64,000 bases of DNA from Alphaproteobacteria bacterium (GTDB lineage Bacteria; Pseudomonadota; Alphaproteobacteria; SHVP01), in contig JAYONB010000007.1 in NCBI GenBank assembly GCA_038121105.1, forward strand, positions 119,365 to 183,364, written 5' to 3'. Numbering within the stretch: position 1 is the stretch's first letter; every line of letters starts with the position of its first letter. The position numbers and the translations under genes are program-made. Shown in pieces: positions 7,032 through 15,688 of the stretch. The notes below the pieces were generated by a model that saw only the letters and a program-made list of their open reading frames with translations, made no database searches and was not told where the DNA came from.

Positions 7032-8462
7032 ATGAGCCAGCCTTCGCCCCAAGAACTCTTTTTTACCCGCACCGGCCTCGACGAAAAGCGTGTCGAAGGC
7101 CTCGTCGGCGAGGCCCTGCACGGCATGGATGACGGCGAGATTTTCCTGGAATACCGCCAGTCCGAGAGCTTTTCCTTCGATGACGGGCGGCTCAAAGCCG
7201 CGGCCTACGACACCGACCAAGGTTTCGGCCTACGCGCGGTTTCCGAAGATTCCACCGGCTACGCCCATGCCGCCGAGCTTTCCGAGGACGCCATCAAACG
7301 CGCCGTCTCCACGGTGCAAGCCGTGCGTGGCGGCAATGTGGGCACCGCCGCGGCAGGTCCTGCGCGCACCAACAACACGCTCTATGTCGACGACAATCCG
7401 CTCAACGAGGTGCCGTTCGAAGACAAGATCAAGCTGATGCAAGACATCGACGCCTATGCCCGCGCCAAAGACCCGCGCGTGCGCCAGGTCTCGGCCTCGC
7501 TCGCCGGATCGTGGCAGGTCGTCCACATGATCCGCGCCGACGGCCACCAGGTCGGCGACATCCGCCCCCTGGTCCGTCTCAACGTCTCGGTCGTGGTCGG
7601 CGACGGCGACCGCCAGGAGACCGGCTCGCACGGCACCGGCGGCCGCACCGGTTACCTCGGCTATATCGATCCCGCGGCTTGGCAAGGCCAAGTCGACGAA
7701 GCCTTGCGCCAGGCCCTGGTCAATCTCGAAAGCATCGATGCGCCCGCCGGTGAGATGACGGTCGTACTCGGCCCCGGCTGGCCCGGCATCTTGTTGCACG
7801 AAGCCATCGGCCATGGCCTCGAGGGCGACTTCAATCGCAAAAAAACCTCCGCCTTCGCCGGCTTGATGGGCGAACAGGTCGCCGCCAAGGGCGTCACCGT
7901 CGTCGACGACGGCACGCTCACGGATCGCCGCGGCTCGCTCACCGTCGATGACGAAGGCACGCCGACCAACCGCACGGTCCTGATCGAAGACGGCATTCTC
8001 ACCGGTTACCTGCACGACCGGCTCAACGCGCGGCTGATGAACATGGCGCCCACCGGCAACGGTCGCCGCCAGTCCTACGCGCACATGCCGATGCCACGCA
8101 TGACCAACACCTACATGCTGTCGGGCGATCGCGATCCCGCGGAAATTCTAAGCGGCGTGAAAAACGGTCTCTATGCGGTGAACTTCGGCGGCGGCCAGGT
8201 CGACATCACCTCGGGCAAGTTCGTCTTTTCCTGCACCGAGGCCTACATGGTCGAAGACGGCAAAGTCGCCGCCCCGGTCAAAGGCGCCACCCTGATCGGC
8301 AACGGTCCCGACGTGCTGACCAAGATCAGCGGCATCGGCACCGACATGGGCCTCGATCCGGGCATCGGCACCTGCGGCAAAAACGGCCAAGGTGTTCCCG
8401 TCGGCGTCGGCCTCCCCACCATCCGCGTCGACGGCCTGACGGTCGGCGGCACCGCGGCCTAG
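7032..8462 (+). CDS. tldD: metalloprotease TldD
   Basis: TldD/PmbA family with the HEAIGHGLEGD motif. The start was chosen at MSQPSP (7032) inside the longer track ORF. Confidence 0.9.
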   Translation: MSQPSPQELFFTRTGLDEKRVEGLVGEALHGMDDGEIFLEYRQSESFSFDDGRLKAAAYDTDQGFGLRAVSEDSTGYAHAAELSEDAIKRAVSTVQAVRGGNVGTAAAGPARTNNTLYVDDNPLNEVPFEDKIKLMQDIDAYARAKDPRVRQVSASLAGSWQVVHMIRADGHQVGDIRPLVRLNVSVVVGDGDRQETGSHGTGGRTGYLGYIDPAAWQGQVDEALRQALVNLESIDAPAGEMTVVLGPGWPGILLHEAIGHGLEGDFNRKKTSAFAGLMGEQVAAKGVTVVDDGTLTDRRGSLTVDDEGTPTNRTVLIEDGILTGYLHDRLNARLMNMAPTGNGRRQSYAHMPMPRMTNTYMLSGDRDPAEILSGVKNGLYAVNFGGGQVDITSGKFVFSCTEAYMVEDGKVAAPVKGATLIGNGPDVLTKISGIGTDMGLDPGIGTCGKNGQGVPVGVGLPTIRVDGLTVGGTAA

Positions 8463-9229
8463 ATCACGCGGACCGATGCCCGCGCAGTGTCGCACTCGGC
8501 GCAGCCCTCGGCGGTGGCGTGCAGAAACAACAACGGATCGTCCTTGAGCGCCGCGCACGCCAACCTCACGACATCGCGTGACCGAAACAATCGCGCCGTC
8601 GCACGGCCGACCGTCCCTTCGTGCTGCAATCCCTCGACACGCAACAAATCGTCGGCCAACGCAAACCGCGCGCAGCACGAATCGTTTTCGCCGTAGTCGA
8701 TCCGCGTCGGCACCCCGTCTTCGAGAACCGTGATGTGATGCGGAATGCGATAGGGCACCCCAGCCTTAAGCTCGGCAAGATGTAAACTGGTGTCGGCATC
8801 ATGCCCGACACCGAGCAACAGCACCTGGCCGCCCAGATCGTGTACCCGACCGACCGCGCTCTCAGGGCCGTGCGGCGGCAGGGTCATCGGCACGTCGACG
8901 ATCTCCTTCGCGCGCGGCCCCACCGCCGCCCAGGCAAAGGGATGATCGCCGCGCCGCGCGTCGGGCCGTCGCCACAACGTCTGCGCCACCACACCGAGAT
9001 CGAGGTCGGCGGGCGTGGTGGCCGGGTCGAACACATGATCGTCGTCCCCGGTCCACGACGGCATCACCACCGTGCCGTCCGGTCCGACCGTCATCAACAA
9101 CGCCTCGATCAGCCCCGCCGGTCCGCCGTCCACCGGCCGTACCGCGCGAAACGAGGTGTGCACCTGCACCACCGCGCCGGTCATCACGCCCAACGCACGA
9201 AGTTGATCGGCGATCGCGCTGGGGGTCAT
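8459..9229 (-). CDS. aminoglycoside N(3)-acetyltransferase family protein (AAC(3)-like, Antibiotic_NAT)
   Basis: Collinear similarity to AAC(3)-IV-type enzymes: VHTSFRAVRP, VMPSWTGDDD, FDPATTP, LHLAELKAGVPY, DYGENDSCCARF. Confidence 0.8.
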   Translation of the reverse strand: MTPSAIADQLRALGVMTGAVVQVHTSFRAVRPVDGGPAGLIEALLMTVGPDGTVVMPSWTGDDDHVFDPATTPADLDLGVVAQTLWRRPDARRGDHPFAWAAVGPRAKEIVDVPMTLPPHGPESAVGRVHDLGGQVLLLGVGHDADTSLHLAELKAGVPYRIPHHITVLEDGVPTRIDYGENDSCCARFALADDLLRVEGLQHEGTVGRATARLFRSRDVVRLACAALKDDPLLFLHATAEGCAECDTARASVRVI

Positions 9230-9249
9230 CGTGTTGGTTGGCTGGCCGC

Positions 9250-9939
9250 CTAGCGCAGCTCGAACGTCACCGCGAGGTCCATCGACAGCGTGGACGTACC
9301 CGCCGCAACCGGCACGCTCGCCAACGCTTCGGACCGGAAGCGCGCCGGTGCGGGCCCGCCGCCACGCCCGGTTTCCGAAATCGTCATGACGCGGCCCAAC
9401 CGGGCCCCGGCCGCTTCCGCCATCATGGCCGCTTTGCGTTGCGCGTCTTTGACCGCGGCAATGCGCAAGCGGTCTTGCACGGCCTCGTCGGGCGCAACGA
9501 AGAACGTCACGCCGTTCAGCGAATTGGCGCCGCCTTTGATCAACGCATCGAGCGTGTCGCCGACGATCGCCGTGTCGCGCACCAGGGCCGTCACGGTGTT
9601 CGTCGCCCGATAGCCGACGATCCGCCGCGCCTGCCCCCGCCCCTCGACCTGATCGAACACCGGCGAGACGTTGAACCCCGAGGTTTGGATATCCGCCTCG
9701 GCCACCCCCGCGGCGCGCAAGGCGGCAAATACGCCGCGCATCGCCGCGCTGTTTTGATCGACCGCCTCGCCGGCGCTCTTGGCTTGGCTCACCACACCGG
9801 CGCTGACGCGCGCGCGGTCCGGCGTCGCGTCGACCTCGGCATGACCGCTCACCGAAATCGTCCGCGCCGGTTCCGCGGCGTGGGCCTCGGCCGATAGCCC
9901 CACCGTCATCGCAACGAACGCAATCAAAAAGGCTCGCAT
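9250..9939 (-). CDS. SIMPL domain (DUF541/BP26-like) periplasmic protein
   Basis: Signal peptide MRAFLIAFVAMTVGLSAEAHA plus the SIMPL fold motif TISVSG. Confidence 0.8.
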   Translation of the reverse strand: MRAFLIAFVAMTVGLSAEAHAAEPARTISVSGHAEVDATPDRARVSAGVVSQAKSAGEAVDQNSAAMRGVFAALRAAGVAEADIQTSGFNVSPVFDQVEGRGQARRIVGYRATNTVTALVRDTAIVGDTLDALIKGGANSLNGVTFFVAPDEAVQDRLRIAAVKDAQRKAAMMAEAAGARLGRVMTISETGRGGGPAPARFRSEALASVPVAAGTSTLSMDLAVTFELR

Positions 9940-10002
9940 GGTTTTACTCCCATTGATGTCGGGCCACGATGCCATGCCCGCACCCTGGTGCGCGACTCTC
10001 GT

Positions 10003-11190
10003 TTAGCGAAACGCTTCCTCGCGCAGTGCCGCGATCACGGCCTCAACAGTCATCGCCTCTTGCACGCCATCGCGGCGGCGCAGTGTGATCTGATCGCCGG
10101 CGGCCTCACGGGCGCCCACCGCGGCCAACAACGGAATGCCGGCGTCGCGCGCATCGACCACCTTGCGCGCCAACCGCTCTGGGCGCACGTCGGGCACCGC
10201 GCGATAGCCCGCCGCCGCCAACCAGTCGACGACGGATTTGGCGTAGGCCACCTGCGCATCCGTGATGCTCGCCACCACGATTTGATCGGGCGCGAGCCAC
10301 AGCGGCAGATTGCCCTCGTGGTGTTCCAGCAACATGCCGATGAACCGCTCGACGCTCCCCAACACCGCATGATGGATCATCACCGGGCGGACCCGACCGC
10401 CCCCGGCATCGACGTAGGCCGCGTCCAGGCGCTCGGGTAGCACCATATCGAGCTGCACCGTCCCGCATTGCCATTCGCGCCCGTGACTGTCGCGTAAGTG
10501 AAAGTCGAGCTTGGGGCCGAAGAACGCGCCCTCGCCCGGATCGACGCGGTAGGCAATTCCGGCGGCTTTGGCCGCGGCCTCGAGCCGCGCCTCGACTGCA
10601 TCCCACGCCGCATCGTCGCCGGCCCGCACCTCGGGCCGCGTCGAAAACGCGACCTGCACATCGTCGAACCCGAAGTCGGCATAGACCTTGTGCAACAGGC
10701 CGCAAAACCGCGCGACCTCGTCCTCGATCTGGTCCTCGGCGCAAAAGATATGCGCATCGTCCTGCACGAAGCTGCGCCCGCGCATCAGGCCCATCAGCGC
10801 CCCGGAGGGTTCGTCGCGATGGTACATACCGAACTCGCTATAGCGGATCGGCAAATCGCTAAACGAACGCACGCGTTTGTTGAACACCTGCACGTGCCCG
10901 GGACAACTCATCGGTTTCAGGGCCCGCGATTGGCCGCCGTCTTCGAACGCAAACATGTTGTCGCCGAACTTTTCCCAATGACCGCTACGCTCCCACAGCT
11001 TTCGGTCCAGCAGCACCGGCGTGCGAATCTCACGAAAGCCGAGCCCGCGCATGCGCGCCCGGATCGTCTCTTCGACGATGCGAAACAGGGCAAAGCCGCG
11101 GGGGTGCCAAAACACCATGCCCGCCGCTTCCTCCTGCTGATGCCAAAGGTCCATGCGGTTGGCGATTGCGCGATGATCGTGGTCGTCCAT
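10003..11190 (-). CDS. threonyl-tRNA synthetase paralog: catalytic core and anticodon-binding domain only, lacking the N-terminal TGS and editing domains
   Basis: The ORF begins exactly at the DHR(K/A)xG catalytic-domain boundary (MDDHDHRAIANRMDLWHQQEEAAGMVFWH...MSCPGHVQVF...GTVQLDMVLPERL...), near-collinear with E. coli ThrRS residues ~240-642. There is no room upstream for N1/N2 domains: 233 bp separate it from the next gene. Confidence 0.8.
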   Translation of the reverse strand: MDDHDHRAIANRMDLWHQQEEAAGMVFWHPRGFALFRIVEETIRARMRGLGFREIRTPVLLDRKLWERSGHWEKFGDNMFAFEDGGQSRALKPMSCPGHVQVFNKRVRSFSDLPIRYSEFGMYHRDEPSGALMGLMRGRSFVQDDAHIFCAEDQIEDEVARFCGLLHKVYADFGFDDVQVAFSTRPEVRAGDDAAWDAVEARLEAAAKAAGIAYRVDPGEGAFFGPKLDFHLRDSHGREWQCGTVQLDMVLPERLDAAYVDAGGGRVRPVMIHHAVLGSVERFIGMLLEHHEGNLPLWLAPDQIVVASITDAQVAYAKSVVDWLAAAGYRAVPDVRPERLARKVVDARDAGIPLLAAVGAREAAGDQITLRRRDGVQEAMTVEAVIAALREEAFR

Positions 11191-11239
11191 GTCGTTTTCT
11201 CCTCATCAAAAAAGCCGGGAGAAGACGGGCACCAGACAC

Positions 11240-11271
11240 AAAAAAGGCCCCGTCCGGATACCGGCGGAGCC
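11240..11271 (-). terminator. candidate attenuator terminator: 11-bp GC stem GGCUCCGCCGG-UAU-CCGGACGGGGCC followed by U6
   Basis: Seen on the minus-strand transcript between the Thr leader ORF and the ThrRS-like start. Alternative pairings with upstream segments are possible. Confidence 0.5.
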
Positions 11272-11294
11272 TGGGGTGGTTATTGATGCTGTAC

Positions 11295-11372
11295 TTAGCG
11301 CACGTCAAAACCCCACGGCCCGCCGCTGCGGGTCGTGGTGGTGGTGTTCAGTGCCTGAAGCATCATCAACAT
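11295..11372 (-). CDS. candidate leader peptide (25 aa) with five consecutive Thr codons
   Basis: ATG at 11372 gives MLMMLQALNTTTTTRSGGPWGFDVR*, with the run ACC ACC ACC ACG ACC. It lies 52 nt downstream of the methyltransferase stop and 105 nt upstream of the ThrRS-like ATG. Confidence 0.5.
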   Translation of the reverse strand: MLMMLQALNTTTTTRSGGPWGFDVR

Positions 11373-11423
11373 GGCGCGGACCCTAAGTCCGGTCGCGAAA
11401 GGGTTCAATGTTCTATTGGTCTG

Positions 11424-12245
11424 CTAGGACAAAAGCGTCCGTTTGACGATGAGCCCCTGCCCCGTGGGGAGCTCCAAAATCCGTTGGCTGCGCGCGGCAA
11501 ACCAGGCCTGGTAGGCATCGAACATGGGCTCGTATTCCGACCGCCCGAAATCGTCCAGCAAGATCACGCCGTTCTCGGGAATGCGATCGTAAAAGAACTC
11601 AAGCGCGGCGATCTCCGCCCCCGCGCAGTTCATATCCAAATGTAGGAACACAACTTTCTCCGGGGCGGTCTCGGTCAAGACGTCCGGTACCGTGCCCGCC
11701 ACGACATGCACGTTAGGCCAAGGCGCAAAGCGCGCCCGCACTTGCGCTTCCAATCCGTCGGCGGAGAACGTCGGCCCCGACAAGCGCATTTCCGTCTCGG
11801 TGGCATAGCGACTGTCCAGTCCTTGGAACGTATCGTAAAGGTAGAAGTCGCGATCCGGCGCGATGGCCGAGCCCAACGTGCCCAGCGCGGTCACCGCATA
11901 AAGCCCTTCGTAAACCCCGCATTCGACCAACGCCCCCTCATGACCCAACGAGGTCGAGATCGCCCAACAATACGTATGCAGCCGCCACAGTTTGTGCAGA
12001 TCTTCGGGTTGTTGGCACGCGTTGCCCGCGACTTCCATGAACGTGCGGTCGCGGGTGAAACCGAGATTGCGTGCAATGGCAATGAGGTTGTCCGCCATAA
12101 AGGTGCGCACACCGTGCTCTCGACACACACGCTGCATGTCGTGCGCGCTTTCGCGGACGCGGCTACGCGCGGTGAGCGGAAGGCCCACCGAATAAAAGCT
12201 CATGGCCTCGTAATCGGGCACCGGGGATTCTGTCATGTGCCGCAC
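11424..12245 (-). CDS. TylF/MycF-like (macrocin O-methyltransferase family) class I SAM-dependent methyltransferase
   Basis: LVECGVYEG and LYDTFQG motifs typical of PF05711-type O-methyltransferases. Confidence 0.65.
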   Translation of the reverse strand: MRHMTESPVPDYEAMSFYSVGLPLTARSRVRESAHDMQRVCREHGVRTFMADNLIAIARNLGFTRDRTFMEVAGNACQQPEDLHKLWRLHTYCWAISTSLGHEGALVECGVYEGLYAVTALGTLGSAIAPDRDFYLYDTFQGLDSRYATETEMRLSGPTFSADGLEAQVRARFAPWPNVHVVAGTVPDVLTETAPEKVVFLHLDMNCAGAEIAALEFFYDRIPENGVILLDDFGRSEYEPMFDAYQAWFAARSQRILELPTGQGLIVKRTLLS

Positions 12246-12278
12246 GCTAGGCCGTCTTGGTGAACAAACCCTTAAGGG

Positions 12279-12971
12279 CTAGGACGGCGGGGCCGAGACC
12301 TCGGCGCGCGCCAAATTGTCGAGCAACGTCGGATCGTCCGGAAAGCGCTTCAGCGCCTCGCGGTAGTCCGCCACCGCCGAGGCATAGTCCCCAGTCGCAT
12401 GATGCGCCAAGCCGCGCGCGAGATAGCCGAACCCGTCGCCGTAGCGGATCAAACGGCTCGCCTCCTCGCGCAGTCGGGCATGATCGCCCAGGCGCAATAA
12501 CGCCTCGACGCGGGTCCGCACCGCCAAGTCAGGAACGATGCCTTCGATCACGGGCGTCTCGGCACAGCGCGTCAGGGCCGCACGTTCCAGCGCCACGCGA
12601 CAGATCACCTGAATCTGGCGCAAGGCCTGCGCCGCGATTTCGGTGTTCGCCGGATCGCGTCGCGCGTCGGGCGACCCGGTGGCGTGGGCCACCGTCTCGT
12701 GGCAGGTGTCGATCATCGCAGCGCCGTCTTGGGTTGGGCTGCCTTGGATGCACGCGCTCAGCGAGTCGCGGGCCGCGGCCGCCGGGTCGGAGTCGAACAC
12801 GCCCAACCACCACAGCCCGGCTGCGACGATCAGCACGTCCACCACGATCCCGCCGACGATAAAGTAGGTGAGATAGCGCCGGTTCATGCTGCGCATCTTG
12901 GCCATCGCCGTCTGGAATAAAGACGGTGGGTCGGTCTTGGGATCCTCGGGTTCGCTCACGGGCGGCATCAT
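12279..12971 (-). CDS. membrane-anchored TPR-repeat protein (hypothetical)
   Basis: N-terminal transmembrane helix (YLTYFIVGGIVVDVLIVAAGLWWL) followed by TPR-like helices (DYASAVADYREALKRFPDD). Confidence 0.5.
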   Translation of the reverse strand: MMPPVSEPEDPKTDPPSLFQTAMAKMRSMNRRYLTYFIVGGIVVDVLIVAAGLWWLGVFDSDPAAAARDSLSACIQGSPTQDGAAMIDTCHETVAHATGSPDARRDPANTEIAAQALRQIQVICRVALERAALTRCAETPVIEGIVPDLAVRTRVEALLRLGDHARLREEASRLIRYGDGFGYLARGLAHHATGDYASAVADYREALKRFPDDPTLLDNLARAEVSAPPS

Positions 12972-13001
12972 AGCCGTCCCGTGACGCCAAGGGGCCAGGC
13001 A

Positions 13002-13238
13002 TTAGTTCAGCGGCCAACGCCACCACGGCGTTTGGGACACCGACCTTACCTCGCCGGCGGTCACCCCGATATCGCGCCGCCCGCGGGCATCCAGCAGGCC
13101 CAGCGCGGCTCGGTCGCGACGCGCTTTGACCCAGCGTCGCGCCAACACCGCCAAGACCTTGGTGAGACGCGGCATGGCACCCCGACGGGGCTCAATCCGG
13201 TGGGTTTCGGTAAGGTCGCCCATTGCAATCTCGGCCAT
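13002..13238 (-). CDS. DUF1127 domain small protein
   Basis: C-terminal motif RRDRAALGLLDARGRRDIGVTAGEV matches DUF1127. Divergent from a LysR gene, which is a common arrangement. The start is uncertain (alternatives at 13223 or 13175). Confidence 0.5.
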   Translation of the reverse strand: MAEIAMGDLTETHRIEPRRGAMPRLTKVLAVLARRWVKARRDRAALGLLDARGRRDIGVTAGEVRSVSQTPWWRWPLN

Positions 13239-13392
13239 CGGTCTATCCTTTTGCGCCCGCATTTCTGCGGATTTTCGGGAATCTCGGGCGGTAGGCCCAC
13301 CTGGTTCTTGCGCCTCAAATAAGGGGCAGACCCGCCCATCAATCAAACGAATTGATTTGAAGCCACCAATCAGAATTGCTTATGTCAGGGTC

Positions 13393-14316
13393 ATGCACCG
13401 CAATCTCGATATCGACCTCCTGCGCACTCTCGTGGCCATCGCCGAGACCGGCTCGTTCACCGCGGCGGCCGATCAGATCGGGCGCACCCAATCGGCGATC
13501 TCGATGCAGATGAAGCGATTGGAAGAACAGATCGAGCGCCCGCTTTTTGTCCGCGACGGGCGCACCAGCACGCTCACCCCGGCCGGCCATGACTTGCTCG
13601 ACTACGCGCGCCGGATCTTACGATTGCAGGACGCCGCCCTGTCGTCCCTCCGCGAACCGGAGATGGAGGGCGTGGTCCGCGTCGGCATCCCCGACGATTA
13701 CGTCGGCGTGTTCATGCCGCCGATCCTTGCCCGTTTCGCGCGATCCCATCCGCGCGTCCAAGTCGATCTGCGCTGCGAAACCTCCGACCGGTTGCGCGAT
13801 TCCCTGTTGGCCGGCGAAATCGATTTGGCGGTCGTCACCTGCGGCGCATTGACCGAAGAAAGCCAGCCGCTCAAAAAAGAAGCCGTCGTGTGGGCTGCCC
13901 CGCGCGAGCATCGCGTCGAAGACGAACCCGTTCTGCCGCTCGCCCTGTTCGCGGCCCCGTGTCGGGTGCGCGAATCGACCATCCAAGCGTTCGACAAAAT
14001 GGATCGCGACCATCGCATCGCGTACGTCTCGCCCTCGCTGATGGGATTGTTCGCCGCGGTGAACGCCGGGCTCGCCGTCACCACCATCGGCCGCAGTGCG
14101 CTGACCTCGGGAATGCGTACGCTGACCGAGGAAGACGGCTTTCCGCCGCTGCCCGACATCGTCCTGACGTTGGAGCGTACCCCGCGCGAACGCTCCGCTG
14201 CGGTCGAAGCGCTGGCGACGCACATCATCGAATCGTTTCGCGACGAAGCGAACGTCCCGCGGGTCCCGCCCAACGCGGGCCCGGAATATTGGCAGCGCCC
14301 CAGCGCCGCCGAGTAG
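13393..14316 (+). CDS. LysR family transcriptional regulator
   Basis: N-terminal wHTH (LRTLVAIAETGSFTAAADQIGRTQSAISMQMKRLEE) plus a LysR substrate-binding domain. The ATG at 13393 was chosen inside the longer track ORF. Confidence 0.9.
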   Translation: MHRNLDIDLLRTLVAIAETGSFTAAADQIGRTQSAISMQMKRLEEQIERPLFVRDGRTSTLTPAGHDLLDYARRILRLQDAALSSLREPEMEGVVRVGIPDDYVGVFMPPILARFARSHPRVQVDLRCETSDRLRDSLLAGEIDLAVVTCGALTEESQPLKKEAVVWAAPREHRVEDEPVLPLALFAAPCRVRESTIQAFDKMDRDHRIAYVSPSLMGLFAAVNAGLAVTTIGRSALTSGMRTLTEEDGFPPLPDIVLTLERTPRERSAAVEALATHIIESFRDEANVPRVPPNAGPEYWQRPSAAE

Positions 14317-14320
14317 CGAT

Positions 14321-15688
14321 CTAGTAGGCTTCTTCCTCGAAGACGGGGTCGACGTTGCCGCCCCAGGCGCCGGCGTAACGCACCAGCAGACCTTCGGCCG
14401 GCGCCTTGCCGCTGCGTTGAATGACGTCCAGCGGATCGAGGAACCCCGCTTCGTCGGTCCCCATGCCGTCGAGTCGGCCACGGTCGCGCAATCCGCCCCG
14501 CGCGATCTCCAGCACGCGGCCGGCAAGATCACCCACCGTGCCGTTGCGGAACGGCGTCTTCAGCGCCGTCTTGGGCACTTCGGCGCGCAAATACTCATGC
14601 TCTTCCAGCGTGAAGTCTTTGACCAAATCCCACGCCGCATCGAGGGCGGATTGCGAATAGGTCAGCCCCACCCACAACGCCGGCAACGCGCAGATGCGGC
14701 CCCACGGCCCGCTATCGGCGCCGCGAAACTCCAAAAACCGTTTCATGCGCACTTCGGGGAACAACGTCGTCATGTGGTCTTCCCAGTCGCGCAGCGTCGG
14801 CTTCTCGCCCGGTAGCGCGGGCAACTTGCCGTCGAGAAAATCGCGAAAGCTTTGGCCCGAGGCATCGAGATACGTGCCGTTGCGATAGACGAAGTACATC
14901 GGCACATCGAGCACATGATCGGCGTACCGCTCGAAGCTCATGCCGTCCTCGAACACGAACGGCAGAATGCCGCAGCGATCGGGATCGGTGTCCGTCCACA
15001 CATGACTGCGCAGCGACAAGAACCCGTTCGGCTTGCCTTCGGTGAAGGGCGAGTTGGCGAACAGCGCCGTCGCCACCGGCTGCAACGCCAGGCCGACGCG
15101 GAACTTCTTCACCATGTCGGCTTCGGATTGGAAGTCGAGGTTCACCTGCACCGTGCAGGTGCGAAACATCATATCGAGCCCCATCGAGCCCTTGGTCGGC
15201 ATGTAGGCCATCATGATGCCGTAACGCCCTTTGGGCATGACGTGGACATCCTCGCGCCGCCACTTGGGATTGAAGCCCAATCCCAGCATCCCCGATCCGG
15301 TCTCCGCGCCGATCTCTTTGACCTGCTTGAGATGCGTGTTCACCTCGACGCAGGTCTCGTGAATGTTCTCCAGCGGCGCACCCGACAATTCGAACTGTCC
15401 GCCCGGCTCCAGCGTGATGCTTTGCCCGGCCATGGTCAGCGCGATCGGGTTGCCGTTCTCAAGGTGCGGCTCCCAGCCGAACCGCGTCAATCCGTCCAAC
15501 AACGCGCGAATCCCGGGCGTACCCTCATAGGGCAACGGGCGCAGGGTCTTGAGGTCGAACGCGAATTTCTCGTGCTCGGTGCCGATGCGCCAATCCTCGG
15601 GCGGCTTGCATCCCGATTCGATGAAATCGACCATCTGTTGCTTGTTCTCGACCGGAATCCCGGGGTCGTCTGCCGGTGGCGCCGACAT
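14321..15688 (-). CDS. gshA: glutamate--cysteine ligase (GCS2/plant-alphaproteobacterial type)
   Basis: Full-length similarity to GshA type 2. Confidence 0.9.

Follow-up and report, generated by a model that had tools for sequence, protein, structure and literature searches.

An editing-less threonyl-tRNA synthetase gene with a threonine-codon leader in a variable slot between tldD and gshA of an alphaproteobacterium

Engineered delta-N threonyl-tRNA synthetase (ThrRS) of Escherichia coli charges tRNA(Thr) and cannot clear Ser-tRNA(Thr). A second ThrRS gene is exemplified by Bacillus subtilis thrZ, which stays silent until thrS becomes limiting or Thr scarce and is under T-box control. Classical ribosome-mediated attenuators, such as those of E. 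coli thrL-thrABC and pheM-pheST, combine a short ORF rich in cognate codons, overlapping alternative hairpins and an intrinsic terminator. For Streptomyces, leader peptides have been described ahead of thrS, leuS, trpS and alaS, and these are leaderless (PMC8079986). Anabaena possesses the ThrRS pair T1/T2, of which the stress-induced, editing-deficient copy takes over aminoacylation if the housekeeping enzyme fails (PMC4787780), and T2 is induced by low zinc (PMC9437257). ThrRSs composed of catalytic and anticodon-binding domains without cis-editing serve as working enzymes in crenarchaea (ThrRS-cat, plus ThrRS-ed) and yeast mitochondria.

The window, referring to the whole 64-kb stretch of alphaproteobacterial DNA analysed here, carries a short thrS within a block of six minus-strand ORFs at 8459-13238. 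All six are present where the original prediction had placed them, between tldD and LysR/gshA, and match Pfam families above the curated cut-offs. The left anchor tldD (7032-8462, plus strand; NCBIfam TldD, 548 bits) encodes a protein 100% identical to the 476-aa P0124, and its stop codon overlaps that of the convergent gene for an AAC(3)-IV-like N-acetyltransferase (8459-9229, minus; Pfam Antibiotic_NAT, E 1e-49) inside CTAG. The latter is followed by genes for a SIMPL/DUF541 protein with a signal-peptide-like N-terminus (minus; Pfam SIMPL, E 5e-53), whose ORF spans 9250-9975 with the gene caller preferring 9250-9939 (229 aa, called on L001), the short ThrRS (10003-11190, minus), a TylF-like class I SAM methyltransferase (11424-12245, minus; Pfam TylF, 54.5 bits, profile positions 91-233 of 264), a membrane-anchored TPR protein (12279-12971, minus; TPR_14/TPR_16/TPR_2 matches at residues 155-223 and a hydrophobic segment at about residues 33-58, read from the translation) and a small DUF1127 protein (13002-13238, minus; 28 bits versus a cut-off of 23.3). 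The last of these diverges from a LysR-family regulator gene (13396-14316, plus; Pfam HTH_1 and LysR_substrate), beyond which lies the right anchor gshA (14321-15688, minus), encoding a plant-type glutamate-cysteine ligase (TIGR01436, 681 bits).

These flanking genes are as originally described, and so is the tight packing, with intergenic gaps of 20, 27-63, 233, 33-42 and 30 bp, the 233-bp gap lying upstream of thrS. The extent of the block, first given as 8459-13346, needs correction only at the DUF1127 gene: in gene calls on identical metagenome contigs its product has 78 aa (13002-13238), in place of the 114-aa TTG-started ORF reaching 13346. GC3 is 0.75-0.84 in the five larger block genes, as expected of real genes in a genome with 65% GC. 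The shared strand, which had been singled out, is nothing special, because gshA, rsmE, ctaC and ctaD are on the minus strand too.

Comparison with relatives revealed a cox-tldD ... gshA-rsmE-ubiA frame, in which tldD adjoins the cox cluster in all relatives compared and the gshA-rsmE-ubiA order is kept in loci L089, L214, L215, L216 and L217. There is no gene between tldD (79% identical) and gshA in L216, and two unrelated genes, for PhoD and an amidase, fill the interval in L217 (tldD 77% identical). The LysR gene is missing from both intervals and belongs to the clade-specific insert, outside the conserved frame. Close relatives hold five to eight genes in this interval in differing combinations, so that the window, L089, L091, L214 and L215 present five different gene sets or orders. 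L089 lacks AAC(3), and the difference is a clean 784-bp indel bounded by TAGGC(G/C)GC. In L091 a split redoxin-like ORF pair takes the place of the SIMPL gene, which sits at a different position in L215, and the short thrS is missing from the syntenic slot of the close relative L214. The TylF-like gene occurs in all five clade loci, TPR homologues with 46-82% identity were found in L089, L091, L214 and L215, and the DUF1127-LysR pair is retained in L089, L214 and L215.

This six-gene set and order did not recur in most relatives, and the variable content of the interval, the AAC(3) indel, the replaceable SIMPL gene and the absence of thrS from one close relative mark the block as accessory and lineage-specific, as the original prediction held. 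Its further suggestion of one acquired module was not supported. The block varies gene by gene and fills the space between two conserved housekeeping genes without forming a single functional unit. Nor are the six genes one operon, since thrS comes with a promoter-like site, a leader ORF and a terminator of its own. The compositional check for foreign origin was negative, the block genes lying within +/-0.7 SD of the window's 53 genes in GC, GC3 and codon usage alike. No tRNA gene was found in our search, and the Pfam domain search gave no integrase or transposase domain among the six block products. Together with the native composition and the gain and loss of genes singly, this leaves no sign of a recently acquired island.

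These data bear directly on the idea that the whole block is a single co-functional antibiotic module, gained by horizontal transfer and serving resistance or biosynthesis, in which acetyltransferase, aminoacyl-tRNA synthetase and methyltransferase cooperate. All three family names bring antibiotics to mind, the genes lie close together on the same strand, and the AAC(3)-like protein is 60% identical (148/248, ungapped, same length) to the apramycin-resistance enzyme AAC(3)-IVa (PDB 6MN3). The window protein scores below the NCBIfam AAC(3)-IV cut-off (398 versus 420 bits), its gene is chromosomal in an uncultured alphaproteobacterium, and its substrate is putative. Against the idea of a module, the TylF match is partial and weak, also against MycF and NovP (E about 1e-4), and neither the ORF list nor the domain search gave PKS, NRPS, glycosyltransferase or sugar genes near the block. 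Moreover, thrS, SIMPL and AAC(3) vary independently in close relatives with differing gene order, a promoter-like site and terminator separate TylF from thrS, and the composition is native, with neither tRNA gene nor integrase. Outside this clade, the short thrS travels without the other five block genes. A single cooperating module is hence largely refuted and highly improbable.

As the original prediction noted, the ThrRS is truncated and preceded by a leader. It has 395 aa without the TGS and editing domains, matching tRNA-synt_2b and HGTP_anticodon and only model positions 170-564 of NCBIfam thrS TIGR00418, at 442 bits against an equivalog cut-off of 383.65. An in-frame stop lies four codons upstream of the match. 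The part of E. coli ThrRS (1qf6) to which the protein aligns is residues 242-631, and with the truncated constructs 1evk/4hwo the alignment runs end-to-end, so that it has the same boundaries as delta-N ThrRS (residues 242-642; PDB 1EVK/1EVL, later 4HWO, 8H99 and others), with which it shares the catalytic and anticodon-binding domains and the zinc-ligand motifs. The Cys/His/His ligands reside in CPGH, QDDAHIF and MIHHA. Yeast mitochondrial ThrRS 3UGQ is also matched (E 9e-73). Whereas delta-N ThrRS is a laboratory truncation, the window protein belongs to a natural family with its own regulation: among the best 120 homologues listed, lengths range from 308 to 421 aa, with 117 at 387-421 aa, and identity within the family is 64-75% across distant taxa.

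Judged from its sequence, the protein is probably a catalytically complete class II ThrRS with an anticodon-binding domain, naturally devoid of the TGS and editing domains. Truncated aminoacyl-tRNA synthetase paralogues with new functions are common, Alphaproteobacteria included (PMC9437257), and the short ThrRS might likewise have left translation as an amino acid:carrier-protein ligase or a regulator. This is very unlikely in view of the score above the equivalog cut-off, the retained anticodon-binding domain and zinc-ligand motifs, the lack of conserved partner genes and the predicted control by Thr codons as sensors of charged tRNA(Thr).

The 233-bp gap ahead of thrS resembles a classical ribosome-mediated attenuator. 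It contains a 25-aa leader ORF, three hairpins that exclude one another, a terminator and an anti-Shine-Dalgarno (anti-SD) hairpin, all on the minus strand. The thrL-like leader ORF, MLMMLQALNTTTTTRSGGPWGFDVR* (11295-11372), has five Thr codons at 11345-11331, read directly. A 1:2 hairpin joins the Thr codons to region 2 (-22.8 kcal/mol, z -3.7), while in the 2:3 antiterminator (11263-11324; -32.8 kcal/mol, z -3.1) region 2, GGCGGGCCGTGGGG (11324-11311), pairs with region 3, CCCCAGGCTCCGCC (11276-11263). Regions 3:4 constitute an intrinsic terminator with a T6 tail (11240-11272; -21.4 kcal/mol, z -4.0), the pattern of which has a single match in the 64-kb window versus 0.04 expected by chance. 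Hairpin z-scores in the window range overall from -3.1 to -4.1. Further downstream, the SD GAGGAG (11204-11199) is predicted to pair with an upstream anti-SD at about 11225-11218 (feature 11199-11225).

Leader ORFs precede the short thrS in 7/7 loci found by protein homology alone, all seven with the terminator, and 12 further metagenome loci have the Thr leader as well. In the resulting alignment of 19 leaders, the pattern by which the latter 12 were found fixed parts of the 1:2 loop and terminator, where covariation is not readable. The 1:2 hairpin engages the Thr codons in 17/19 leaders. In 19/19, the 2:3 pairing ties up 8-10 nt of the 11-nt terminator 5' arm, at -29 to -44 kcal/mol, the terminator itself having -20 to -26 kcal/mol. 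When the segment from terminator to start is folded, the MFE structure pairs the SD in all 19, but the z-scores are modest and the anti-SD feature is accordingly tentative. A Thr run of at least four in seven codons is present in 20/20 distinct short-thrS upstream regions; at least five in seven codons occur in 19/20, compared with 0/70 upstream regions of full-length thrS. In L214 and L215 the same leader scaffold stands ahead of a DUF1127 gene in place of thrS, and the Thr run is gone (NKAAMT, QKAVMT).

A promoter-like site (11380-11408, minus), with TTGAAC (11408-11403) and TAGGGT (11385-11380) spaced by 17 nt, lies just upstream, the leader ATG being 7-8 nt downstream of TAGGGT. A TTGAC box aligns in 6/7 leaders; a strict sigma-70 consensus scan made no call at the thrS site, for which reason we only infer the promoter. 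A (near-)leaderless start of the leader ORF appears probable, as in the leaderless Streptomyces peptides, of which thrL has two Thr residues; the short-thrS leaders are clearer, with 4 to 9 Thr codons. The element differs from classical attenuators in its sequence family (the Rfam families searched gave no match at E <= 1, Thr_leader included), in having as its target a ThrRS paralogue devoid of editing, in Alpha- and Betaproteobacteria, and in the possible extra anti-SD hairpin. With the Thr region masked, the terminator still wins at thermodynamic equilibrium in 14/15 leaders folded, so the switch could operate only through folding kinetics during transcription, like classical attenuators.

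The short thrS was found in at least six different, unrelated neighbourhoods. In Burkholderia, the conjugative megaplasmid pM7012 and a 3.5-Mb secondary replicon carry it with the same leader, bearing six and nine Thr codons, respectively. In a neighbour-joining tree without bootstrap, the short forms make up their own clade apart from alpha and beta/gamma full-length ThrRS, and the full-length alphaproteobacterial enzymes form a separate clade of their own. This patchy, plasmid-capable distribution of a bacterial paralogue is distinct from crenarchaeal and yeast mitochondrial ThrRS. In alphaproteobacterial hosts, a full-length thrS presumably coexists.

Because that coexistence is only inferred, the short ThrRS might instead be the sole housekeeping ThrRS of these alphaproteobacteria, with the attenuator as homeostatic control. 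In Streptomyces, a leader peptide has been proposed to control a thrS (PMC8079986), and the family is well conserved, with the identities given above. This reading is nevertheless unlikely given that the short gene is missing from the syntenic slot in L214, varies in location by genome, is found on a conjugative plasmid in Burkholderia and encodes proteins separated from the full-length alphaproteobacterial clade in the tree. Besides, an editing-free sole ThrRS is to our knowledge otherwise confined to reduced systems such as yeast mitochondria or to crenarchaea with a separate editing protein.

A somewhat more plausible, though still doubtful, special case of the backup model is that the short ThrRS is an inhibitor-insensitive immunity enzyme against natural ThrRS inhibitors, for instance compounds resembling borrelidin or obafluorin. 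The inhibitor would lower the level of charged tRNA(Thr) and thereby induce the gene, a regulatory logic that fits since several resistant aminoacyl-tRNA synthetase paralogues are controlled through induction by uncharged tRNA. The gene is plasmid-borne and patchy like a resistance gene, and in the window it neighbours an AAC(3)-like gene. That adjacency, however, is not conserved, no producer cluster lies near the short thrS in any context seen, and we know of no description of the self-resistance ThrRSs BorO and ObaO as truncated.

The explanation we consider likely is a hypervariable slot plus a self-contained mobile cassette with an attenuated backup ThrRS. The slot, in a genus- or family-level clade, would have taken in unrelated genes, each gained, lost or moved on its own, and one occupant would be a horizontally mobile cassette of promoter, leader ORF, attenuator and ThrRS gene. 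As in B. subtilis thrZ, a shortage of charged tRNA(Thr) is predicted to cause antitermination in the leader of a second ThrRS gene, but the thrZ sensor is a T-box RNA binding tRNA, whereas here it would be a translated leader peptide with Thr codons, and the enzyme here is without an editing domain. The presumed duplication with an editing-deficient induced copy likewise recalls Anabaena T1/T2, except that T2 retains a degenerate editing domain, absent here, and responds to low zinc instead of the predicted signal of tRNA(Thr) charging.

When Thr-tRNA(Thr) is plentiful, the ribosome would read past all five Thr codons as far as the leader stop, covering region 2, so that the 3:4 terminator forms and transcription ends. 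When it is scarce, the ribosome would stall at the Thr run and mask region 1, allowing 2:3 pairing in place of the terminator and transcription of thrS; translation may additionally be locked by the anti-SD hairpin further downstream. An editing-less backup ThrRS is not what one would expect under Thr starvation, which raises the Ser/Thr ratio. Scarcity could arise from such starvation, or from a housekeeping ThrRS that is inhibited or failing. The short thrS is best read as a mobile, self-regulated gene whose product would serve as a backup ThrRS.

The original prediction of six consecutive minus-strand genes between tldD (7032-8462, plus strand) and the LysR regulator gene (13396-14316, plus strand), which is followed by a plant-type gshA (14321-15688, minus strand), was supported by the ORF list together with Pfam and NCBIfam scans. 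All on the minus strand, these genes encode an AAC(3)-type acetyltransferase (8459-9229), a SIMPL/DUF541 protein (9250-9939, or to 9975), a threonyl-tRNA synthetase (ThrRS) of 395 aa (10003-11190), a TylF-like methyltransferase (11424-12245), a TPR protein with one hydrophobic segment (12279-12971) and a DUF1127 protein. For the last, gene calls on identical metagenome contigs favour a product of 78 aa (13002-13238) instead of the 114-aa ORF reaching 13346. GC3 values of 0.75-0.84 in the five larger genes indicate that the genes of the block are real. The AAC(3)-like gene and tldD converge, and their stop codons overlap within the palindrome CTAG.

Exact-protein look-ups, starting from homologues of ThrRS and tldD, anchored the comparison of the interval with its counterparts in related genomes and metagenome loci. 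The frame of ctaD-ctaC and tldD on one side and gshA-rsmE and ubiA on the other is kept in all relatives examined, with differing content between tldD and gshA. The interval is empty (about 520 bp) in L216 (tldD identity 79%), and that of L217 (77%) contains PhoD and an amidase. L214 (92%) carries DUF1127, TylF, a 202-aa ORF, TPR, DUF1127 and LysR, with thrS, SIMPL and AAC(3) all missing, and L215 (86% by tblastn, 89% by BLASTP) carries AAC(3), thrS, TylF, DUF1127, SIMPL, a 192-aa ORF, TPR, DUF1127 and LysR. SIMPL, thrS, TylF, TPR, DUF1127 and LysR occupy the interval of L089 (96%), and AAC(3), split redoxin ORFs, thrS, TylF and TPR onward that of L091 (93%); the window itself reads AAC(3), SIMPL, thrS, TylF, TPR, DUF1127 and LysR. 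Alignment at the DNA level revealed AAC(3) as a clean presence/absence difference of 784 bp, running from the SIMPL TAG to the tldD TAG and bounded by the 8-bp repeat TAGGC(G/C)GC, the sole repeat seen, and in L091 the place of SIMPL is taken by 725 bp of unrelated sequence. LysR, DUF1127, TPR and TylF form the most constant part of the clade-specific insert, and the tldD-proximal end is the most variable.

The differing content among relatives, the AAC(3) indel and the SIMPL replacement make it very probable that the interval is a small hypervariable slot with single-gene turnover. The description of the block as lineage-specific and accessory is thereby borne out, and an identical six-gene order is not general among the relatives; the idea of one acquired module tying acetyltransferase, synthetase and methyltransferase together found no support, since single genes come and go. 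The redoxin/AhpC-like gene that stands in for SIMPL in L091 (2994-3573) reads as two ORFs of 99 and 101 aa that overlap; a frameshift in a pseudogene or a fault in the assembly may account for the split. Three successive short DUF3422 ORFs between ctaC and tldD in L216 (8635-9789) look like one fragmented gene, indicating that the side of tldD away from gshA varies too.

Acquisition as a compositionally foreign island was rejected on the GC, GC3 and codon-usage likelihood of the block genes, for which the 53 genes of the window served as reference: the codon-usage z of the five larger genes lies between -0.31 and +0.66 SD, and no deviant composition was seen. A tRNA scan found no tRNA gene, hence the block is not tRNA-associated, and no integrase or transposase domain was detected by Pfam in the six block products and three flanking ones. 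The marks of a genomic island or mobile element (a recombinase, tRNA or repeat boundaries, deviant composition) are thus not those of this block. An integron cassette array was excluded as well, as gaps of 20-63 bp and overlapping stops leave no space for attC sites. The block also does not read as a single operon, given the strong terminator and promoter-like site between the TylF-like gene and thrS and the varying gene content. No terminator-like site was found between thrS, SIMPL and AAC(3), so that SIMPL and AAC(3) may ride on read-through of the attenuator described below, and co-transcription of the three genes is possible.

The AAC(3)-like protein is 60% identical to AAC(3)-IVa and belongs to the Pfam family Antibiotic_NAT, and its score against the AAC(3)-IV model NF033081 (398.1 bits) is below the cut-off of 420. 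The gene lies at 8459-9229 in the window, 3570-4340 in L091 and 2742-3512 in L215, and the corresponding site in L089, which lacks it, is 8470-8478. Chromosomally encoded and environmental, it is related to an apramycin-resistance enzyme of clinical relevance, and it is present in some close relatives and absent from others. The TylF-like protein scores above the Pfam TylF cut-off, but only over the central profile positions 91-233 of 264, and its matches to MycF and NovP are weak (E about 1e-4). Since the match is partial and no sugar or PKS biosynthetic neighbours occur in five clade loci, a role as macrolide-sugar methyltransferase is unsupported. The block as such is an ordinary small plasticity zone with a coincidental mix of antibiotic-like annotations, and it is the embedded thrS cassette, not the whole block, that merits specialist attention.

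The 395-aa ThrRS passes the equivalog threshold of TIGR00418 thrS (442 bits, cut-off 383.65) and contains the class II catalytic core (Pfam tRNA-synt_2b, E 4e-44) as well as the C-terminal anticodon-binding domain (HGTP_anticodon, residues 303-391, E 1.6e-12). The motifs kpmsCPGH, QDDAHifc and vmiHHa align to their zinc-ligand counterparts in a full-length ThrRS structure (Cys334, His385 and His511 in E. coli numbering). Absent are the N-terminal TGS (N1) and editing (N2) domains: positions 1-169 of the thrS model are unmatched and the match starts at 170, an in-frame stop lies four codons 5' of the ThrRS match, and the DNA further upstream consists of the leader and terminator. Its alignment covers residues 242-631 in E. 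coli ThrRS and the full length of N-terminally truncated crystal constructs, and in structure it equals the laboratory delta-N ThrRS. Among the best 120 homologues listed, 64-98% identical, all have 308-421 aa and 117 have 387-421 aa, with names including Azospirillum halopraeferens, Ferrovibrio, Kiloniellales and Minwuiales. Judged by these domain boundaries and homologue lengths, the short ThrRS is a natural short family and not a pseudogene.

The distribution of the short thrS is patchy and partly plasmid-borne. Outside the clade of the window it lies in unrelated neighbourhoods, namely those of L084/L090, L086 (A. halopraeferens), L088 (Ferrovibrio), L218 and two Burkholderia replicons. 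A tblastn search of PLSDB located short copies of about 60% identity in three places: in Burkholderia sp. M701 on the conjugative megaplasmid pM7012 (582 kb), in B. arboris on a secondary replicon of 3.5 Mb, and on Caballeronia chromids. The pM7012 protein is 61% identical to that of the window and 52% to the full-length ThrRS of Paraburkholderia. In a quick neighbour-joining tree, built without bootstrap support, the short forms including the Burkholderia copies cluster together, apart from full-length ThrRS of Alphaproteobacteria and of Beta- and Gammaproteobacteria, and mean identity is 0.63 among short forms versus 0.53 between short and full-length ones. A genome-collection scan with the short ThrRS was dominated by full-length thrS, one of the 80 loci listed (L064) being of the short type. 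Acetobacter and Gluconobacter plasmids of 116-261 kb also carry annotated thrS genes about 52% identical to the query (PLSDB matches H5-H8, H12, H13 and H19), a second, distinct set of plasmid-borne ThrRS genes.

The plasmid copies, the separate clade and the lack of thrS at the syntenic position in L214 suggest indirectly that a full-length thrS may coexist in the same alphaproteobacterial genomes. Comparing assembly prefixes and contig-length fingerprints paired no short thrS with a full-length one in a single assembly. We therefore lean towards the short thrS being a backup paralogue.

The 233-bp gap between the TylF-like gene and thrS was aligned with the upstream regions of six homologues chosen by protein identity alone. 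Conserved among these seven leaders are a TTGAC box, a short ORF bearing a Thr-codon run, and a GC-rich hairpin followed by Ts. Direct reading of the minus strand of the window gives a leader ORF of 25 codons (11372-11295) encoding MLMMLQALNTTTTTRSGGPWGFDVR and ending in a stop codon, with the Thr codons ACC ACC ACC ACG ACC at 11345-11331, region 2, one of the strands able to form alternative hairpins, at 11324-11311, and a terminator comprising an 11-bp GC-rich stem at 11272-11246 plus T6 (-21.4 kcal/mol, z -4.0), which is conserved in all seven protein-found leaders. The Shine-Dalgarno (SD) sequence GAGGAG (11204-11199) and the thrS ATG (11190) follow, likewise on the minus strand. An Rfam search of the whole window at gathering score was negative, as was one of 8000-14000 relaxed to E <= 1, placing the leader outside the catalogued RNA families, including Thr_leader and T-box.

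No promoter was called by a strict sigma-70 scan, and a candidate promoter is proposed solely from the conserved TTGAC box. At 11370-11408 the leader ATG lies 7-8 nt past a -10-like hexamer and has no SD; the mRNA from which the leader peptide is made is therefore probably leaderless or almost so. Most of the seven aligned leaders contain CCGCGCCATG or a near variant (for example CCACGCCCATG).

To the seven leaders, a metagenome pattern built from the hairpin cores, with the Thr codons left out, added 12 that precede a short thrS or lie at a contig end, giving 19. In 17 of these, the Thr codons are paired with region 2 in the 1:2 hairpin. When the folded RNA stops at the terminator loop and a ribosome is taken to have stalled at the second Thr codon, the antiterminator 2:3 joins region 2 to 8-10 nt of the 11-nt terminator 5' arm in all 19 leaders (-29 to -44 kcal/mol). 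The terminator 3:4 forms in all 19 (-20 to -26 kcal/mol). The hairpins of the window have z-scores of -3.7 (1:2), -3.1 (2:3) and -4.0 (3:4), with -4.1 for the whole leader. Folding in transcription order replaced equilibrium folding with a stalled-ribosome mask, under which the terminator stayed unbroken in all but one of 15 leaders. RNAalifold analysis of the 19 leaders gave almost no covariation; as the paired cores do not vary and the search pattern itself fixed part of them, covariation support is not claimed.

Between the terminator and the thrS start, an anti-SD stretch base-pairs with the SD in the MFE folds of all 19 leaders, with weak z-scores. This stretch, located within 11199-11245 in the window and at equivalent places in the 18 other leaders, is CCTCCGTCC in most and TCTTCTCC in the window. 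It resembles the 5' arm of the terminator, and the freed 3' arm is often able to compete for it. The predicted anti-SD hairpin may serve as a second, translational lock.

As a control for the Thr run, the maximum number of Thr codons per 7-codon window was counted within 300 nt upstream of each gene. At least five were present in 19 of 20 distinct upstream regions of short thrS and four in the remaining one, and the maximum never exceeded four upstream of full-length thrS (n=70). Both Burkholderia copies are preceded by this leader too, the Thr codons numbering 6 in one and 9 in the other. A natural "mutant" is seen at 11712-11947 in L214 and 6103-6290 in L215 (both on the minus strand), where a paralogous copy of the scaffold stands before a DUF1127 gene and not before thrS: the leader C-terminus (...SGGPW.VDVR before the stop) and the terminator are kept, and the Thr run is changed to NKAAMT or QKAVMT. 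L215 carries both versions, thrS-linked and DUF1127-linked. This is consistent with the Thr run being maintained only where the regulated gene is thrS. With high confidence, the element upstream of thrS is assigned as a leader-peptide attenuator.

The scaffold appears to have been re-used in front of asd, GNAT and DUF1127 genes, in combination with different leader peptides. The metagenome scan retrieved leader ORFs in which Thr, Lys, Ile and Met are abundant (such as MAQMMTKTMTTKTTAPAGG... and MSQPIIKRIITKTPAPADG...) with the same GC hairpin pattern, most without a clear T tail, in front of asd (L093, L103, L105, L134 and L170). The product of asd, aspartate-semialdehyde dehydrogenase, is the common enzyme of the Thr/Lys/Met/Ile pathway. 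In A. halopraeferens (L086, 8763-11191) the short thrS with its leader lies directly downstream of asd and upstream of prfC, an adjacency that echoes these asd-associated leaders. GNAT acetyltransferase genes (L129, L135, L156, L187 and L169) are likewise preceded by short leader ORFs, such as MHLIPTDRRGG... and MQLVIHYVATRLGGP..., that are followed by this hairpin and a tail rich in T.

Classical ribosome-mediated attenuation sensing Thr-tRNA(Thr) is proposed for the short thrS. When charged tRNA is ample, the ribosome would reach the leader stop and cover region 2, so that 3:4 would terminate transcription; when it is scarce, the ribosome would stall on the Thr run, 2:3 would form and thrS would be transcribed. 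The leader would thus respond to tRNA(Thr) charging and belong to the class of leader-peptide attenuators, as do E. coli thrL and pheM. In its proposed function, the short thrS resembles thrZ of B. subtilis, the T-box-controlled second ThrRS. No account of a natural bacterial editing-less ThrRS family or of the leader was found in the literature searched; a prior description is possible, likeliest in Lopatovskaya et al. 2010 (Mol Biol 44:128), which reportedly deals with attenuation of aminoacyl-tRNA synthetase operons. In Anabaena, an editing-impaired second ThrRS is induced on failure of the first (the T1/T2 pair; PMC4787780), and the function proposed for the short thrS is alike. In Streptomyces, leaderless leader peptides were proposed upstream of thrS, leuS, trpS and alaS (PMC8079986). 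The cassette is accordingly a variation on known kinds of system.

Taken as a whole, the explanation of a variable slot harbouring a self-regulated backup ThrRS cassette is regarded as probable. A more far-reaching reading, put forward tentatively and with the odds somewhat against it, is an unrecognised "emergency ThrRS" cassette, horizontally mobile in Alpha- and Betaproteobacteria including on conjugative plasmids, in which an editing-free paralogue behind a leaderless Thr-codon attenuator and an anti-SD hairpin would fire only when charged tRNA(Thr) collapses. It would uphold translation at the cost of unedited Ser-tRNA(Thr), and might give tolerance to ThrRS-targeting natural products or to conditions disabling the housekeeping enzyme.

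Duplicated aminoacyl-tRNA synthetase genes are very common, and few have an understood role. For the short ThrRS, expression is predicted to be coupled to tRNA(Thr) charging through an easily testable leader peptide. Annotation pipelines label this protein plainly as "threonine--tRNA ligase", and genomes may consequently be scored as having normal ThrRS quality control even when the copy observed has no editing domain. A natural bacterial ThrRS without a proofreading domain raises the question of regulated mistranslation, as well as that of intrinsic or transferable tolerance to ThrRS inhibitors.
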